Shown here in pieces: positions 3,767-32,000 of a stretch of 32,000 nt of DNA; the first letter of the stretch is position 1; each line of letters opens with the position of its first letter. The DNA is from Candidatus Saccharimonadota bacterium (GTDB lineage Bacteria > Pseudomonadota > Gammaproteobacteria > Enterobacterales > Enterobacteriaceae). The notes under the pieces are model-generated. The model did not search any database. It was not told the origin of the DNA and saw nothing but the letters and a program-made list of their open reading frames with translations. A program made the position numbers and the translations under genes. The DNA lies in NCBI GenBank assembly GCA_015134435.1, contig CP043989.1, forward strand, positions 180,001-212,000. Direction: 5' to 3'.

Positions 3767-4198
3767 TTAATTATTAATATTTAAAATTTTATAAACACTA
3801 GATGATAATTTTATATTATTATCTAATATTTTAATATTTTTATTAAATTTTTTATAACCTAAAATTATTTTAACAAATTTAATATTATGTTTAATAATTT
3901 TATTTTTTTTTAAAATATTTAAATTTATAATAGAATTATTATTAAATATAATTAATTTATCTAAAGATAATTCTTTATAAAAAATATTTTTTTTACTTTT
4001 AAAACCAAATTTAGGTATTCTACGATAAAAAGGTGTTTGACCACCTTCAAAATATCTTTTAATATTATAACCTGATCTAGATTTTTGACCTTTATGACCT
4101 CTACCACTAGTTTTACCTAAACCAGATCCTATACCTCTTCCTAAACGTTTAGATTTTTTTTTTTTTGATTTATAAAATAAATTATTTAAAAATAACAT
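3767..4198 (-). CDS. rplO: 50S ribosomal protein L15
   Basis: Track ORF, 143 aa. [27 protein letters not shown]...[17 protein letters not shown] is the L15 signature. Spc-operon position upstream of secY. Confidence 0.94.
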
Positions 4199-4229
4199 AA
4201 TTAATTACCATAATTAAAAAAATTTAAAA

Positions 4230-4727
4230 TTAAAAAATTTCTTTTAAAAATTTACCTCTTTTATTTGCAATAAAAAGAGGAGATTCTATACTAGATAGAG
4301 CTTTTATAGTTGCTTTTACTACATTTATAGGATTTGTAGAACCATAACATTTAGATAAAATATTTTTTATACCTGCTACTTCAAATAAAAATTTCATAGA
4401 TTTACCAGCTATTATACCAGTACCTTTTATAGTAGGTTTAATAAAAATTTTAGTACTATTATAACAATAATTTATTGAATATCTTAATGTTTTTTTTTTA
4501 TTTAAAGATATAGATATAATATTTTTATAAGATTTATTTAAAGATTTTTGTATTGCTAATGGCACTTCTTTAGCTTTTGCATAACCATAACCAACTTTAC
4601 CTTTTTTATTACCTACAACAGTTAAAGCAGAAAAAGAAAAAATTCTACCACCTTTAACTGTTTTAGAAATTCTATTAACAAATATTAATTTTTCACAATA
4701 TTTTTTATTAAAAATATTTTTTTTCAT
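4230..4727 (-). CDS. rpsE: 30S ribosomal protein S5
   Basis: Track ORF, 165 aa. LIFVNRISKTVKGGRIFSFSALTVVGNKKGKVGYGYAKAKEVPLAIQKS..GTGIIAG is typical S5. Only 31 nt separate it from rplO, so rpmD (L30) is absent here. Confidence 0.94.
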   Translation of the reverse strand: MKKNIFNKKYCEKLIFVNRISKTVKGGRIFSFSALTVVGNKKGKVGYGYAKAKEVPLAIQKSLNKSYKNIISISLNKKKTLRYSINYCYNSTKIFIKPTIKGTGIIAGKSMKFLFEVAGIKNILSKCYGSTNPINVVKATIKALSSIESPLFIANKRGKFLKEIF

Positions 4728-5675: not shown

Positions 5676-6074
5676 TTAATATATATAACCAATTATTTCT
5701 CCACCAATATTTAAATAACGAGCTTTTTTATCTGATAAAACACCTTTAGAAGTAGATATAATAACAACACCTAAACCAGATCTTATTAAAGGTAAATTTT
5801 TATAAGATTTATATATTCGTAAACTAGGACGACTAATTTTTTTTATAAATGAAATAACAGGTTTATTTAAATAATATTTTAAATAAATATTTATTTTTTT
5901 TTTCTTTAAAATATCAAAAAATATATTATATTTTTTAATATAACCTTCAGAATAAATAACATTTAAAATAGAACATTTAAATTTAGTATAATAAATAGAT
6001 ATTTTTTTTTTTTTTGCTAATTGTGCATTTCTTATACATGTAAACATATCTGATATAGAATCTTGCATACTCAT
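5676..6074 (-). CDS. rpsH: 30S ribosomal protein S8
   Basis: Track ORF, 132 aa. MSMQDSISDMFTCIRNAQLAKKK...ISRPSLRIY...GLGVVIISTSKGVLSDKKARYLNIGGEIIGYIY is typical S8. Confidence 0.94.
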   Translation of the reverse strand: MSMQDSISDMFTCIRNAQLAKKKKISIYYTKFKCSILNVIYSEGYIKKYNIFFDILKKKKINIYLKYYLNKPVISFIKKISRPSLRIYKSYKNLPLIRSGLGVVIISTSKGVLSDKKARYLNIGGEIIGYIY

Positions 6075-7669: not shown

Positions 7670-7912
7670 TTATTTAATAATTTTATATAAAAATCATGTT
7701 TTTTTTTTAGATAAAGGACGACATTCTTTTATCATTATAATATTATTAATATTACATTTATTATATTCATCATGAACATAAACTTTAATTTTTTTTTTTA
7801 TATATTTTTTATATATTTTATGTTTTATATATTTATTTATTATAGCTACAACAGTTTTATTCATTTTATTACTTATTACAATAGCTTTTTTAATATTTTT
7901 TTTTTTTATCAT
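7670..7912 (-). CDS. rpsQ: 30S ribosomal protein S17
   Basis: Track ORF 7694..7912 ends at TGA. It continues ..ECRPLSKKKT-W-FLYKIIK* (E. coli ..ECRPLSKTKSWTLVRVV). The N-terminus is collinear with E. coli S17. 80 aa. Confidence 0.92.
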
Positions 7913-17174: not shown

Positions 17175-17621
17175 ATGTCAAAAATATTAATTTATCCAAA
17201 TAAAATTTTAAGAAAAAAAAGTAAAAAAATAAATAAATTTAATAATAAATTAAAAAAAATAATAAATAATATGTTTATTATAATGTATAAATATAATGGT
17301 ATTGGTTTATCAGGTATACAAATTAATATAAAAAAATCTATATTTATAATAGATATATTAAAAAAAAAAAATAGTAAATTAATATTTATTAACCCAAAAA
17401 TAATAAAAAAAAAAAAAATAATAAAATCAATAGAAGGATGTTTATCAATACCTAATAAATATATAAAAATTAAAAGATATAAATATTTAATAATAAAATC
17501 ATATAATATAAAAGGTAAAAAAAATATTTTTTATACAAAAAATTTATTATCAATATGTATACAACATGAAATAGATCACATAAATGGAAAATTAATAATA
17601 GATTATAAAAATGAAAAATAA
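17175..17621 (+). CDS. def: Peptide deformylase
   Basis: Track ORF 17151..17621. I start it at ATG 17175 (MSKILIYPNKILRKKSK..) because the upstream ATG lies inside tRNA-Leu. All three PDF motifs are present: GIGLSGIQ, EGCLSIP, QHEIDHINGK. Confidence 0.92.
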   Translation: MSKILIYPNKILRKKSKKINKFNNKLKKIINNMFIIMYKYNGIGLSGIQINIKKSIFIIDILKKKNSKLIFINPKIIKKKKIIKSIEGCLSIPNKYIKIKRYKYLIIKSYNIKGKKNIFYTKNLLSICIQHEIDHINGKLIIDYKNEK

Positions 17622-26790: not shown

Positions 26791-26819
26791 AATATAACAA
26801 AAAAAAAAAAATAAAACAA
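26791..26819 (-). promoter_or_regulatory. Candidate sigma70-type promoter of the rRNA operon (speculative)
   Basis: On the minus strand: TTGTTT (26814-26819), a 17-nt spacer, then TATATT (26791-26796), about 140 nt upstream of the 16S 5' end and upstream of the leader stem arm. -10-like hexamers are everywhere in this composition, so only the G-containing -35 and the spacing support the call. Confidence 0.25.
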
Positions 26820-26854
26820 GTAAAATATATATATATTTTTTTAAAATATTAAAA

Positions 26855-27307
26855 TTATTTAATAGAAATTATATTAATAATAAATTTAATTTTTTTTTTT
26901 TTAAATAAATTAATATATATTATATGTTTTCCTATATATTTTATAGAACCATTTGGTAAAAAAATATTTTTTTTAGAAATTTTAAATTTTAATTTTTTTA
27001 AAAAAATTTTACAAATATCAAATATTTTTAAAGAATCAAATAATTTTCCTTTTTTACTACATCTATAATATAATTTCATAGGTGATAATAAAATTATTTT
27101 TTTATAAATAAAATTTAATTTATTTTTATTTTTTTTTTTAATTTTTAAAAATAATATTTTTTTTTTATTAATTTTATTAATATTATATTTATTAAAATAT
27201 AATGCTTTACTATAAGGAATTAAATAATTTCTAGCATATCCTTTACTAACATTAATAATATTACCTATTTTACCTAATTCCTTTTTCAAAATTATAATTT
27301 TAACCAT
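26855..27307 (-). CDS. rplI: 50S ribosomal protein L9
   Basis: Track ORF, 150 aa. MVKIIILKKELGKIGNIINVSKGYARNYLIPYSKALYFNK matches the L9 N-domain (E. coli [37 protein letters not shown]). Follows rpsR. Confidence 0.9.
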   Translation of the reverse strand: MVKIIILKKELGKIGNIINVSKGYARNYLIPYSKALYFNKYNINKINKKKILFLKIKKKNKNKLNFIYKKIILLSPMKLYYRCSKKGKLFDSLKIFDICKIFLKKLKFKISKKNIFLPNGSIKYIGKHIIYINLFKKKKIKFIINIISIK

Positions 27308-27319
27308 AATATAATTAAC

Positions 27320-27550
27320 CTAAAAATTTTGATGTAAATCAGTATAACAAATTAAAGATAAATATCTAGCTCTTTTAATAGCAATAGATAATTTTCTTTG
27401 AAATTTTGAAGAAATACCAGTAACCCTAGAAGGAATTATTTTATTACATTCAGTTATATATTTTTTTAATATATCTACATTTTTATAATCAATTTCTTTA
27501 AAATTATTTAATTTAAAATAACAATATTTTTTATTTTTATTAAATCTCAT
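27320..27550 (-). CDS. rpsR: 30S ribosomal protein S18
   Basis: Track ORF, 76 aa. ..[52 protein letters not shown] is canonical S18. Confidence 0.94.
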
Positions 27551-27567
27551 TTTAAAATCACCAAAAA

Positions 27568-27894
27568 TTAATTAACATTATTTTTACTAATAAAAATTGA
27601 TTTTTCACTTTCTGCATTTTTTTTTCTAATAATAATATATCTTAAAATATTTTTATTTAATTTTAAATCATTAAATATTAAATTAATTATATTAATTTTA
27701 ACTTCAATATTCATAAGAATATAATAAGCTTTATTATTATTTTTAATATTATAAGCTAATTTTCTTAAACCTCAATTTTCTAATCTATGTATTTTTCCAT
27801 TTTTATTTACAATATTAGAATAATATTTAATAATATCATTAATATAAATATTTTTATTAAAATATATCATTAATATAATTTCATAATGACGCAT
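27568..27894 (-). CDS. rpsF: 30S ribosomal protein S6
   Basis: Missed by the track (in-frame TGA). ATG 27892-27894. [15 protein letters not shown]...[33 protein letters not shown] matches E. coli [45 protein letters not shown]. TAA at 27568-27570. 108 aa. No priB between rpsF and rpsR. Confidence 0.92.
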
Positions 27895-27989
27895 ATTATT
27901 ACCTTTAATTTTTTTAAAATAAATTTATTTATAAAATAAAATTAAAAAAAAAATAAAAACAAAATTATATAATTAAATTAATAAATAAA

Positions 27990-28391
27990 TTAACGTTTTG
28001 AATATTGATGTTTAGAACGAGATTTTATATATCCATATTTTTTTCTTTCTACTTTTCTAGAATCACGAGTAATAAATTTATATAATTTTAATTTTTTTCT
28101 AAAATTATTATTATATTTTAATAAAATTCTACTTATACCATGTCTTATTGCAATAACTTGACTAGAAATACCACCACCTTTTACTGTTATATAAAAATTA
28201 AATTTATTTAAAAGAAAAATATTATTAATATCATAAATAATTTTAAAAGGATATAAAATTATTTTTCTTTTAATTTTACAAGAAAAATATTTTTTAAATT
28301 TTAAATTATTAATGTATATTTTTCCAGACCCTTTTTTCATAAATATTCTAGATGAAGAAGTTTTACGCCTACCTGTACTATATAATAACAT
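27990..28391 (-). CDS. rpsI: 30S ribosomal protein S9
   Basis: Track ORF, 133 aa. ..YSTGRRKTSSSRIFMKKGSGKIYINN...VKGGGISSQVIAIRHGISRIL...FITRDSRKVERKKYGYIKSRSKHQYSKR is canonical S9. Confidence 0.94.
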   Translation of the reverse strand: MLLYSTGRRKTSSSRIFMKKGSGKIYINNLKFKKYFSCKIKRKIILYPFKIIYDINNIFLLNKFNFYITVKGGGISSQVIAIRHGISRILLKYNNNFRKKLKLYKFITRDSRKVERKKYGYIKSRSKHQYSKR

Positions 28392-28402
28392 ATATATATA
28401 CC

Positions 28403-28804
28403 TTAAAAATTAATTAAAATAGGATTTTGAGAAATATGTAAATGATTATTATAATTATATATTTTTAATCTTTTTAAATATATTTTACTTAAACGATTTT
28501 TAGGTAACATACCTTTAACAGCATGTGTAATAATATATTTAGGGGATTTTATCATCATTTCTTCAAAAGAAATACTTTTTAAATTACCTACATAACCACT
28601 ATGACGATAATATATTTTATTTTTTCTTTTATTACCAGTAACTAAAATATATTTAATATTTGTTAATATAACAAAATCTCCATTATCTTTATAAGATAAA
28701 TAATTAGATTTATGCTTTCCCATAAGCAAACAAACAACTTTAGTTATTAATCTTCCTAAAATTCTATTTTTTGAATTAATTAAATATCAATTATTTTTTT
28801 TCAT
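28403..28804 (-). CDS. rplM: 50S ribosomal protein L13
   Basis: ATG 28802-28804, in frame with track ORF 28403..28729. MKKNN-W-YLINSKNRILGRLITKVVCLLMGKHKSNY.. (E. coli ..[32 protein letters not shown]), with TGA 28787-28789 at the conserved W. 133 aa. Confidence 0.93.
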
Positions 28805-29585
28805 ATATTATTTAAAAAATTAAATTATTTTCATTATTTATAATAAATAATTTTTATATTTAATTATTAATATAAAATTAAAATATTTTAATTATTAAAA
28901 TTAAAATATAAATTATAAATATTATATATATAAAAAATTTATTAAATTAAATTAATTTAATAAATTTTTAATTTTATTTTTATTAAAAATTTTTAAATAT
29001 TTAAAATATTTATATTAATAAAAATAATATTAATAAAAAAATATATTAAATTTATTTAAAATTTTTATTAATATAAATTAATAATTAATATTATTAAAAT
29101 AAAAATATTTATATTTTTAAAAAATTATTAAAATATTAATAATAAAATATTACTAAAAATCATTTTTAATAATTTTATTAAAAATAAAAATTAATTTTTT
29201 AAATTTTAAAATAAATTAATTATAAATAAAAATAAAATATATAAAATTAATAAATATTTTTTTAATAAAATAATTTTAACTAATTTTAAATATAATTTAT
29301 TTATTAATATAATATATAATAAATTAAAAAATATATATTTTTAAAAATAATTATTATATAAATATTTAAATAAAATAAAAATATGAAAAATTAAAAATTT
29401 ATATAATAAATATATTATATATTATATATTTTAAATAAATTTAAAAAAAATAAAAAATTATTTTTAATATTAAATTATTTAATAAAATATAAAATTTTAT
29501 ATTAAAATAATAAAATAAAATATATTTATATTAAAATAAATATATTATATTTTATATAAAAAATAAACAAAAGGAATAATTATAA
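28805..29585. other. Very long, almost pure A/T divergent intergenic spacer (rplM <- -> rplU)
   Basis: About 780 nt with no ORF in the track. In 28805-29567 I count only five G/C (28832, 29153, 29161, 29280, 29385). 28833-29152 (320 nt) has none at all. The first G cluster is the rplU SD (aagga, 29571-29575). All other spacers in the window are 1-205 nt. Confidence 0.9.
28933..28969. repeat. 37-nt perfect palindrome (18-bp arms, 1-nt centre)
   Basis: aaaaatttattaaattaaattaatttaataaattttt is self-complementary around position 28951. I checked it pair by pair, and it breaks at 28932/28970. Confidence 0.85.
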
Positions 29586-29915
29586 ATGTATGCAATAATA
29601 AATATAAATAAAAAACAATATAAAATTAAAAAAAATCAATATATATATACAGAAAAAATAAATTATAAAAAAAATAAATATATATATATAAAAAATAAAA
29701 ATATTATTTTAATATTTTATAAAAATAAAATTTTATATAAAAAAAAAGATATAAAATTATTTTTAATAAAAATTAAAATAATAAAAAATATTAAAAAAAA
29801 AAAAATAAATATTATAAAATTTAAAAGAAGAAAAAATTATAAAAAAAAATATGGACATAGACAACAATTAACAAAAATAAAAATAAAATCAATAGAGAAA
29901 AAAAATGGCACATAA
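29586..29915 (+). CDS. rplU: 50S ribosomal protein L21
   Basis: Track ORF, 109 aa. [23 protein letters not shown]...[25 protein letters not shown] matches E. coli [24 protein letters not shown]...[25 protein letters not shown]. SD aagga 11-15 nt upstream. Confidence 0.92.
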
Positions 29916-30168
29916 AAAAGCAGGTGGATCAACTAAAAATGGAAGAGATTCAAAATCTAAAAGATTAGGAGTAAAACATTTTGGAGGAGAATTTATTTAT
30001 TCCGGAAATATAATAATAAAACAAAGAGGAACAAAATTTCATTCAGGAATTAATACAAAATATGGAAAAGATCATACAATATATGCAACAAAAAATGGAA
30101 AAATAGAATTTAAAATAAAAAATAAAAAAAAAATTATAAATATAATAACAAATGAATATAAAAAATAA
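29905..30168 (+). CDS. rpmA: 50S ribosomal protein L27
   Basis: Track ORF, 87 aa. [61 protein letters not shown] is canonical L27. 11-nt overlap with rplU. Confidence 0.96.
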
Positions 30169-30299
30169 TATTATTTTAATAATAAATAAATATAAATTTA
30201 AAAAATAAAAATAAAAATATTTCAATTAATTGATTAAAAAAATAATAAAATATAAAAAATTTTTAAAATTAATTTTAAAAAAATAAATAAAATAAAAAA

Positions 30300-30916
30300 A
30301 TGAAAAAAAAAAAAAATGATTAAATTTAATATTTAAAAATAAATATACAAAAATAGCAAAAAAAAAAAAATTAAGATCTAGATCATGATTTAAAATTAAA
30401 GAAATACAAAAAAAATATAAAATATTTAAAAAAAATAATAATATAATAGATTTAGGATGTTCACCAGGAGGTTGATCAATTTTTTTATCAAAAAAAATAA
30501 ATAAAAAAAATAAAATATTTAGTTGTGATATTTTAAATATGAAAAAAATTAAAAATGTAAATTTTATAAAAGGAGATATATGTAATATAAAAACAATAAA
30601 TAAAATAATAAAAAAAACAAAATTATATAAAATAAATTCTATTATATCAGATATATCACCAAACATTTCAGGTATTAAAGAAATAGATAATCCTAAATAT
30701 AAAAATATAATTAAAAGTATTATATATTTATGTAAAAAAAAATTATTTATAAATGGTAATTTAATAATTAAAATATTTTTAGGAGAAAATTTTTCCTATA
30801 TTTTAAAAAAAATTAAAAATATTTTTAAAAAAATAAATATTTATAAACCAAAATGTTCATATAAATGATCTAAAGAAATATATATAATTGCTTTAAAATA
30901 TAAAAATAATTATTAA
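30300..30916 (+). CDS. rlmE: 23S rRNA (U2552) 2'-O-methyltransferase RlmE/FtsJ; apparent -1/+2 frame problem at an A14 tract after the ATG
   Basis: Body frame 30317..30916: W-LNLIFKNKYTKIAKKKKLRSRSWFKIKEIQKKYKIF...IIDLGCSPGGWSIF...FSCDIL...FIKGDI...IISDISPNISG...NLIIKIFLGENF...IYKPKCSYKWSKEIYIIALKYK* is collinear with E. coli RlmE from W13 ([32 protein letters not shown]...DLGAAPGGWSQ...). That frame is closed by TAA at 30293-30295 and has no start codon before the W. The only ATG (30300-30302) is followed by 14 A and is out of frame (MKKKKND*). With 15 A it would read MKKKKKWLNLIF... Confidence 0.8.
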
Positions 30917-30991
30917 AAAATATTATAATATATTAATAAAAAATTTTAAAATAAAAAAATAAAATATATAATACATTAAATAGGAAAAAAA

Positions 30992-31261
30992 ATGTATAAA
31001 ATATTTTCAATATTATTTATATCAATATGTATTATTTTAATTTTAATAATTATTATTTCTCCAAATAAAAATAATATAATAAAATCATATTCAAATTATA
31101 ATAATATTATTACATCAAATTTTATAAAAAATAAATTTAATAATATAATTATTATATTAACTATATTATTTTATATATTATCTATAATATTAAATTTAAT
31201 AAATAATTTTAAAATTAAAAAAATAAAAAAAAAAATAAAAAATATAAAAATATTAAAATAA
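30992..31261 (+). CDS. secG: Protein-export membrane protein SecG (probable)
   Basis: Track ORF, 89 aa, two hydrophobic helices. MY-start and the second helix NFIKNKFNNIIIILTILFYILSIILNLINN resemble E. coli SecG NFMTRMTALLATLFFIISLVLGNINS. It lies immediately upstream of a leuU-type tRNA-Leu, as in E. coli secG-leuU. SD agga upstream. Confidence 0.68.
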   Translation: MYKIFSILFISICIILILIIIISPNKNNIIKSYSNYNNIITSNFIKNKFNNIIIILTILFYILSIILNLINNFKIKKIKKKIKNIKILK

Positions 31262-31277
31262 TAAATTATTATATTAA

Positions 31278-31361
31278 ACCGGGATGGTGAAAATGGTAAA
31301 CACACTACTTTAAGATAGTAGCTTCTATATGAAAATACGGGTTCAAATCCCGTTCCCGGTA
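31278..31361 (+). tRNA. leuU: tRNA-Leu, class II, leuU orthologue with apparent anticodon AAG
   Basis: accggga tg gtg-aaaatggtaaa-cac a ctact-ttAAGat-agtag cttctatatgaaaat acggg-ttcaaat-cccgt tcccggt a. Arm-for-arm collinear with E. coli leuU (..CTACC-TTGAGGT-GGTAG..), so the loop TTGAGGT has become TTAAGAT (G34->A, G37->A). No encoded CCA. Confidence 0.8.
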
Positions 31362-31505
31362 TAATTTTAAAATAATATTTTATATATTTAATATTTTTAT
31401 AATATATTAAATTAATTATTATTAAAAAATTTAAATAATATATTAATTAATATATTTTTTTATTAAATATTTTTTATAAAATAAAAATTTAGGAGATATG
31501 CTAAA

Positions 31506-32000
31506 ATGAATAAAAAAATTTTAGCAGTTGCAGAAGCTTTATCTAATGAAAAATCTTTATCTAAAAAAATTGTTTTTAAAATATTAGAAAATGCTTTAAA
31601 TACAGTAATAAAACAAAAATATAAACAAAAAATTAATATAAGAATATATATAAATAAAAAAAATGGAAAATTTTATATATATAGAAGATGAATAGTAGTA
31701 AAAAAAGTTATATATCCAGAAAAAGAAATAAATTTAAATAAAGCTATATATAAAAATAAAAAAATAAAATTAGGTGAATTTATAGAAAATAAAATAAAAA
31801 AAATAAAATTTGATAGAATAACTACACAAAAAATAAAAAAAATTATAATACAAAAAATTAAAGAAAAAAAAAAAAATATAAATTTTAAAAAAATAATCAA
31901 AAAAAAAGGAAAAATAATAACAGGATTTATAAAAAAAATAGATACAAAATATATACTTTTAGATATAGGAAATAATTTAGAAGCAAAAATATTAAATAAA
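31506..32000 (+). CDS. nusA: Transcription termination/antitermination factor NusA (partial; 3' end beyond window)
   Basis: Track ORF 31506..31691 ends at TGA. MNKKILAVAEALSNEKSLSKKIVFKILENAL...FYIYRR-W-IVVKKV...IKFDRITTQKIKKIIIQKIKE...GKIITGFIKKIDTKYILLDIGNNLEAKIL matches E. coli [89 protein letters not shown]. SD aggag at 31491-31495. Confidence 0.94.

Follow-up and report, generated by a model that had tools for sequence, protein, structure and literature searches.

A poly(A) frameshift at the rlmE start codon of Candidatus Stammera capleta, probably rescued by slippage

Poly(A) frameshifts and the rlmE start tract

Conserved frameshifts in poly(A) tracts have been described in the insect endosymbionts Buchnera and Blochmannia, where 12-50% of transcripts are corrected (PMC3017870, PMC5009743). 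In these cases, for which these papers cite Tamas et al. 2008 and Wernegreen et al. 2010, a one-base indel lies in a long homopolymer of a reduced, A+T-rich genome. Apart from it the gene is intact, its evolutionary rate is not elevated, and the frameshift is conserved across diverged lineages without decay. Here we analyzed a similar arrangement in a 32,000-nucleotide (nt) stretch of contig CP043989.1, referred to below as the window, in which the start codon of rlmE is separated from its reading frame by a run of 14 A (A14). The window is part of a chromosome of Candidatus Stammera capleta, a pectin-degrading bacterium with a reduced genome that lives in symbiosis with tortoise and hispine leaf beetles; all 11 orthologous loci obtained from a species-representative genome collection belonged to this organism. 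No report on frameshifting or slippage in Stammera was found in the literature searched.

Slippage on such runs is also known from other settings. Bacterial expression via transcriptional slippage has been reviewed for the A9 tract of Thermus dnaX, for Shigella mxiE and for insertion sequence (IS) elements, and A/T runs of about 9 or more make RNA polymerase realign and produce other-frame transcripts (PMC5009743). At the level of translation, ribosomes of E. coli slide along iterated AAA codons and lose the reading frame there (Koutmou et al. 2015, PMC4363877), and translational attenuation by poly(A) tracks is also known (PMC4552401).

The body of the window's rlmE lies on the forward strand, as do all rlmE features given below, and runs from 30317 to 30916. 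It comprises 199 codons and a TAA stop (30914-30916), and its first codon is a conserved Trp encoded by TGA (30317-30319). Upstream, the frame is closed by a TAA at 30293-30295. The codons between this stop and the Trp (AAA AAT GAA followed by four AAA) include no start codon, and the frame is free of stops from 30296 to 30916. The only candidate ATG (30300-30302) is offset by +1 from the body frame and is followed by exactly 14 A (30303-30316) and then the TGA; this tract, referred to as site 1, is the proposed slippage site. Read in the frame of the ATG, the tract consists of four AAA codons and AA(T), includes the slippery heptamers A_AAA_AAA and A_AAA_AAT, and forms part of a short out-of-frame open reading frame (ORF) encoding MKKKKND (30300-30323, stop TAA at 30321-30323), which is the product expected without slippage. 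A tract of 15 A is predicted to give MKKKKKW... and one of 12 A MKKKKW.... The gene spans 620 bp, and the local G+C content is about 10%. An initial annotation of this DNA had reported the upstream TAA, the ATG, the A14 tract, the TGA and the MKKKKND ORF, and every coordinate proved to be right. Its description of a body frame without a start before the Trp, with codons solely of the types AAA, AAT and GAA, was equally accurate, and its claim of a conserved RlmE body was borne out by the matches that follow.

Judged by these matches, the body is the FtsJ/RlmE 23S rRNA U2552 2'-O-methyltransferase. Pfam family PF01728 aligned with an E-value of 3.9e-44 and 151 bits (cut-off 24) over profile positions 2-181 of 181, and E. 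coli FtsJ (PDB 1EIZ) matched with an E-value of 2.2e-39. The body contains the motifs WFK (with the K), DLGCSPGGW, SDISPN (D), IKIF (K) and SKEIY (E), which line up with the catalytic tetrad and the DLGxxPGGW S-adenosylmethionine (SAM)-binding loop of E. coli FtsJ; we take the tetrad to be numbered K38, D124, K164 and E199 in E. coli RlmE. Alignment to the NCBIfam equivalog profiles was nearly full length (profile positions 11-208 of 209) though below the curated cut-offs, with 191.5 bits for NF008390 (cut-off 269) and 190.8 bits for TIGR00438 (cut-off 300), and these low scores are probably due to the extreme Lys/Ile/Asn composition. TGA is read as Trp here, as it fills the conserved Trp positions of WFK and PGGW; genetic code 4 is also used by the published Stammera annotation.

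As in the Buchnera and Blochmannia cases, the window carries a single indel inside an A/T tract of at least about 9-10 nt (here A14), and the body remains open for 199 codons. The setting differs from those cases in that Stammera is an extracellular gut symbiont using code 4 with about 10% G+C locally, and in that the break abuts the start codon. Slippage was measured in Buchnera and Blochmannia transcripts, whereas in Stammera it is proposed from the sequence.

Frame breaks at three sites of Stammera rlmE

We surveyed about 40 Stammera rlmE sequences and examined 19 strains at the DNA level, namely the window strain and relatives that are numbered from L001; the comparison genomes were Illumina paired-end (PE150) data. 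Orthology was clear from the shared gene order rpmA-rlmE-secG-tRNA-Leu-nusA. By our own count, approximately 23 of the approximately 40 sequences carry at least one poly(A) frameshift, a break of 1 nt, and the breaks fall at three sites. Site 1 is broken in 10 strains including the window strain, with tract lengths from A8 to A19. Eight of these need one additional A (window, A14; L001, L003, L004 and L005, A12; L006, A10; L007, A8; L009, A11), and two need one A fewer (L010, AAT-A10; L013, A19). No break is present at the site in L002, L008 and L011, nor in another 12 protein clusters, which start with MKKKKW or similar, and the intact relatives read ATG-A12-TGA or ATG-ACA-A15-TGA. The ATG adjoins the tract in all 19 strains.

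The other two sites are internal. Site 2, a tract encoding AKKKKL, is in frame in the window (A13, 30358-30370) and is broken in L006 (A19) and L014 (A12, needing one additional A). Site 3, a tract encoding CKKKLKKK, has no homopolymer at the homologous position of the window, which reads TTA TTT ATA AAT GGT (LFING, 30743-30757). Ten protein clusters with 12 member sequences end at this site in ...KLKKK(E/V/A)I. The junction (C/T)TA-A8-GG, that is, A9 followed by GG, needs one additional A and was identical in all five distinct strains for which DNA was fetched. The C-terminus of about 58 codons (GNLxIKVFLG...SKEIYIIA) stays open in the -1 frame, and the incoming frame reads A_AAA_AAG in L012 and L015-L019, which we take to be the slippery heptamer of E. 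coli dnaX. Transcript-derived variant proteins were not found in the cluster database, where all members have the same length.

In a neighbor-joining tree of RlmE (approximately 196 aligned residues), frameshifted strains were interspersed among intact ones. The site-1 state needing one additional A occupies at least four places, namely the window strain, the group of L001, L003, L004 and L005 (bootstrap 98), the pair L006 and L009 (bootstrap 96), and L007. The site-1 breaks as a whole have at least four or five independent origins, a count that is approximate. The site-3 strains form a clade with a bootstrap of 100, and parsimony over all sites suggests roughly eight or more independent frameshift events, again an approximate number. 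Tract length is invariant within frameshifted clades, with A9 in the 12 sequences of the site-3 clade and A12 in L001, L003, L004 and L005. The state is thus conserved without degradation in these two groups, as is the common offset of L006 and L009. One small gene hit at least eight times (approximately) at three tracts is a further difference from Buchnera and Blochmannia. The break next to the start codon, the repeated hits at three tracts of one gene and the length invariance within clades go beyond the textbook case.

Frame breaks of this kind are rare elsewhere. Of the 67 A/T runs of at least 9 nt in the window, the rlmE start tract is the sole one that breaks a frame. Counted from the same list, all 13 of the other in-gene runs of at least 12 nt are in frame; they include the A17 of rpsK (T17 on the forward strand, 1870-1886), the T14 of rpsH (6002-6015), the A14 of def (17405-17418) and the T15 of rplC. 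The initial annotation had contrasted rlmE with the in-frame rpsK run, and rlmE does stand out. It had also offered slippage of the Buchnera and Blochmannia type as a reading and a comparison of sister strains at the start tract as a check. The comparison returned the out-of-frame arrangement in nine other independently sequenced strains, and the recurrence, the control tracts, the purifying selection and the ATG conservation reported here lend comparative support to slippage; the recurrence and gene specificity were not foreseen in that annotation.

We sampled the frequency of breaks across the 32-kb window and flanks of about 6 kb in the relatives. For eight control genes (mreB, rplU, rpmA, greA, obg, ftsH, secG and nusA) in the same 12 assemblies, a homopolymer frame break was present in 1 of 305 A/T tracts of at least 8 nt; adding the rlmE body to the controls brings the total to 359 tracts, 76 of them at least 10 nt long. 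By comparison, 11 of the assemblies have an A tract at the rlmE start, and in 9 of these it breaks the frame. The single broken control tract is in nusA of L005 (CP144813, 6353-6377), where an A16 needs one additional A and the sister strain L001 has an intact A17. This break is either real or a long-tract miscall; nusA is normally essential. For the L005 strain, an independent Logan re-assembly of raw reads (SRR27267668) gave the out-of-frame A12 again and showed 0 mismatches over 1,700 nt. The truncated site-3 products are likewise encoded in two Logan re-assemblies, and the A8 tract of L007 is too short for a plausible Illumina miscall. The control-tract census and the Logan assemblies rule out general assembly error; within the genus, the rlmE frameshifts therefore exist in the DNA itself.

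For the window strain itself, one possibility is that the A14 is a homopolymer miscall of a true A15 (or A12), and that rlmE is an ordinary intact gene there. Tracts of A14-A15 are near the length at which PCR-based Illumina libraries blur, the closest intact relative, L011, has ACA-A15-TGA, and the nusA tract of L005 also looks one base short. This explanation is nevertheless decidedly unlikely given the 13 long in-gene tracts of the window that are in frame, with a T17, a T15, a T14 and another A14 among them, and the control break rate of 1 in 305. Moreover, the same site is out of frame in the nine other independent assemblies, in some of them at lengths of A8, A10 and A11, and one of the nine was reproduced exactly by an independent assembler.

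Selection on the gene and its expression

The frameshifted genes do not look like genes in decay. After frame correction, the K-D-K-E tetrad and the SAM-binding loop are intact in 19 of 19 bodies. Where a frameshift is common to both strains of a pair, pairwise dN/dS is 0.15-0.38, and pairs of intact genes give 0.25-0.43. In the site-3 clade, dN/dS is 0.16-0.24 upstream of the break and 0.30-0.75 downstream of it, with 0 stops and 0 indels in the downstream part. In a neutral simulation that placed the observed substitutions at random, 6-9 stops were expected in well-diverged frameshifted pairs, and the probability of no stop was at most 0.001. Pseudogene decay of the frameshifted lineages as a class was ruled out by the dN/dS values together with this simulation.

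Site 3 sits after the residue aligned with D124 and before the one aligned with K164, so a truncated site-3 product would lack half of the active site. The break being internal, an alternative start could not rescue it either. Purifying selection downstream of site 3 therefore points to a poly(A) frameshift being read through in Stammera rlmE. This implies, on comparative grounds, that some form of poly(A) recoding operates in Stammera.

The window strain could still be a special case in which rlmE is a young pseudogene, the first step of a gene loss that leaves no functional RlmE. Its chromosome (212,704 bp) is the smallest Stammera chromosome seen, the others measuring 244-326 kb, the adjacent ftsH has already been lost, and the neighborhood lacks mreB, greA and obg. 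In E. coli, rlmE is not known to be essential. The dN/dS of the window's own branch is not separable, and comparisons of the window with other strains give 0.27-0.50. We consider this very improbable, however, as the 199-codon body is free of stops at a composition that gives about 11% TAA per random codon, the catalytic and SAM-binding residues are all intact, and the other frameshifted lineages are under purifying selection across dS values of 0.2-0.6. When the differences between the window and L001 were placed at random, approximately 6 stops appeared (P = 0.001).

Rescue could also act on the DNA, if replication slippage in a polyploid symbiont kept a minority of A15 or A12 copies beside A14 by heteroplasmy or phase variation. 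Replication slippage does act at site 1, where tract length has changed repeatedly in evolution (A8-A19). The A9 of site 3 and the A12 of the L001 clade are, on the other hand, invariant across diverged strains, which argues against rapid length turnover and makes this explanation extremely improbable. Tamas and colleagues reportedly saw length heterogeneity in Buchnera in 2008 in the RNA and not in the DNA.

The choice of start codon was assessed from the other genes of the window. In each of the 42 other protein genes, an in-frame ATG follows the upstream stop at a distance of 0-17 codons, whereas the first in-frame ATG of the rlmE body is codon 81. The out-of-frame ATG that abuts the tract is kept in all 10 strains with a broken site 1, despite 60-nt leaders that have diverged to the identity of shuffled sequence even inside frameshifted clades. 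These leaders contain about 1% G, and the window's 80-nt leader has a single G. The Trp codon that comes directly behind the tract matches a position close to the beginning of the RlmE equivalog profile. Because all 42 genes use ATG, the rlmE ATG persists next to the tract amid scrambled leaders, and no start lies upstream in the body frame, we infer that ATG 30300 is the functional start of rlmE. Two other starts were rejected. An upstream start in the body frame has no room in the window, L004, L007 or L009, where a stop lies 1-2 codons before the codon that overlaps the ATG and no start stands between them. An internal Met start, giving the 125-residue product of cluster P0009, would delete the K38-aligned residue and the SAM-binding loop.

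A third option is a non-ATG start in the body frame just past the tract, perhaps by termination and reinitiation after MKKKKND, which would make slippage at site 1 unnecessary. Candidates are TTA 30320, TTA 30326 and ATA 30329 in the window and ATT or ATA in L001-L005. In every out-of-frame strain, an ATT, ATA or TTA occurs 1-7 codons past the tract, and the short ATG-frame ORF stops within or beside those codons; the 1EIZ chain aligns with the query only from residue 25 on, so the extreme N-terminus may be dispensable. Such Ile and Leu codons are, however, ubiquitous at this composition and hence uninformative, and a non-AUG start behind a leader that lacks a Shine-Dalgarno (SD) element would be very weak. 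The conserved Trp codon comes immediately behind the tract in the window, and in L007, where it is TGG, it precedes every possible alternative start. Universal ATG usage in the other window genes and the retention of the ATG in 10 of 10 strains, which is unexpected if it is unused, make this option unlikely, and it would leave site 3 unexplained.

The explanation that we consider probable is that the frameshift is real, tolerated and possibly selected, and that the gene is not dead, being rescued by slippage on the A-run. The Lys-coding poly(A) directly after the rlmE ATG would truly be one base short, and ribosomes would initiate at the conserved ATG 30300. RNA polymerase may stutter or realign on the A14/T14 tract, adding one A or dropping two, so that transcripts would encode MKKKKKW... 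or MKKKKW...; in the other route, the iterated AAA codons may cause the ribosome to slide or to slip by -1. Events without slippage would yield MKKKKND and then termination. The enzyme, which has one rRNA nucleotide as its target, would then be made in reduced but still sufficient amounts. We infer the occurrence of slippage, as well as its level and efficiency, from the comparison of strains, and the RNA polymerase and ribosome routes are not separable by sequence. On this evidence, Stammera rlmE most likely belongs to the known class of poly(A) frameshifts in insect endosymbionts that are rescued by slippage.

Several observations weigh against slippage rescue or limit its form. The rlmE leader contains no SD or SD-like element, although the 16S rRNA retains the anti-SD. 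Stimulatory RNA structure was absent from 30317-30420, where the minimum free energy was -4.4 kcal/mol (z = -0.98) and 35 of 200 shuffles folded equally well or better. Any ribosomal component is therefore probably unstimulated and inefficient. The ATT, ATA or TTA within a few codons of the tract in every out-of-frame strain would allow a weak non-ATG start at site 1. The dN/dS values are rough, given high dS, saturated sequences and extreme composition, and the number of frameshift events is approximate, as several deep nodes of the tree are unsupported and the tree comes from one short protein. The window strain also has no second assembly on record, which leaves room for an A14/A15 miscall in this genome. 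A stimulated -1 programmed frameshift was rejected as a candidate, since neither a downstream structure nor an SD-like stimulator was found. Their absence disfavors efficient stimulated ribosomal frameshifting and does not disfavor unstimulated slippage.

Slippage in Stammera rlmE can also be compared with the other known systems. The -1 frameshift of E. coli dnaX at A_AAA_AAG resembles site 3, which presents the same heptamer in the incoming frame and needs a -1 shift to reach the conserved C-terminus, and the window tract offers A_AAA_AAA and A_AAA_AAT. Unlike dnaX, Stammera has no downstream hairpin and no upstream SD-like stimulator, and whereas dnaX makes two functional products, the shifted product alone would be useful in Stammera. 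The likeness to sliding and attenuation on AAA codons lies in the at least four consecutive AAA codons and in the predicted loss of frame and lower protein output. There, however, the gene is already in frame and sliding counts as a defect or as attenuation, whereas Stammera rlmE needs a change of frame to make protein. With Thermus dnaX, mxiE and the IS elements, it shares runs of a length at which RNA polymerase realigns. Those sites are fixed and programmed and give specific products, whereas site 1 of Stammera varies in length and frame among strains.

The out-of-frame state might itself be selected as a built-in throttle on RlmE dosage, with only the slipped minority of transcripts or ribosomes giving enzyme. 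Two observations motivate this idea. The tracts are hypermutable and yet invariant in length within frameshifted clades, so a +1 mutation that restores the frame must have arisen often and never become fixed. In addition, rlmE was driven out of frame independently at least eight times, and its neighbors with many similar tracts were not. We regard the throttle as a tentative and rather doubtful addition to slippage rescue.

These results bear on annotation. Automated calls of frameshifted rlmE are fragments of 124-126 residues, starting at an internal Met, or of 151-155 residues, ending at site 3 (clusters P0009, P0018, P0022, P0056, P0066, P0086 and P0025-P0052). Gene callers thus truncate such genes to fragments of 125 or 153 residues, or would flag them as pseudogenes, and Stammera gene-content, pangenome and core-genome tables under-count or misrepresent a presumably functional rRNA-modification enzyme. 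Poly(A) frameshifts are best treated as potentially intact, as was done for Blochmannia. If the reading is true, slippage rescue extends to an extracellular symbiont with code 4 and 10-20% G+C. The genus would then offer a natural experiment in which one small gene is broken at three independent sites, its tracts range from A8 to A19, the required shift goes in either direction, and intact sister strains serve as controls. The dependence of slippage efficiency on tract length could be examined there, as could possible selection of out-of-frame tracts to attenuate expression. For some Stammera strains DNA reads are public, as are RNA-seq data (HiSeq 3000, bioRxiv 10.1101/2023.12.12.571295), so the question is directly testable.

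Neighborhood of rlmE

The order rlmE-ftsH-secG is present in 18 of 18 relatives. In the window, rlmE is followed directly by secG across a spacer at 30917-30991, departing from the enterobacterial rlmE-ftsH synteny. A tblastn search did not find ftsH in 26800-32000 of the window; the gene occupies 3572-5386 in L001. Since ftsH is normally essential, its loss or relocation in a 212.7-kb genome is notable. In L010 (CP043975), ftsH has a frame break of another kind at 4215-4235, at a G+C-containing, non-homopolymer site (GCCAGGCGAAGC), which may reflect real erosion of the gene or an error in the sequence; this genome also carries the atypical rlmE start tract that needs one A fewer.

Upstream, the spacer between rplM and rplU (28808-29585) is 778 nt long with approximately 10% G+C and no ORF of at least 60 residues. 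Relatives have mreB, mreC and mreD upstream of rplU, and in some the rpmA-rlmE interval contains obg, greA or both; the part of the window from rplM to rlmE showed no detectable copy of these five genes. Loss of greA, which encodes a transcript-cleavage factor, was examined in relation to the frameshift state and showed no clear pattern, as greA adjoins rlmE in intact strains (L002, L008) and frameshifted strains (L006, L007, L009, L012-L017).

Start-proximal poly(A) is common in the window genome. Lys-coding runs occur within the first 1-15 codons of the ribosomal-protein genes rpsQ (T12, 7896-7907), rpsK (the T17 at 1870-1886) and rplO (T13, 4154-4166), given here as on the forward strand. 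All three are in frame, and rlmE alone has slipped.

The tRNA-Leu beside secG (31278-31361, forward strand) has the anticodon AAG, as do its counterparts in L001 (5738-5824), L003 (5723-5808) and L004 (5724-5809); the anticodon is GAG in L002 and L006-L011. This G34-to-A34 replacement is a clade-specific change. A34 is unusual in bacterial tRNAs other than tRNA-Arg(ACG), which prompts the question of how the window strain, L001, L003 and L004 decode CUN codons.

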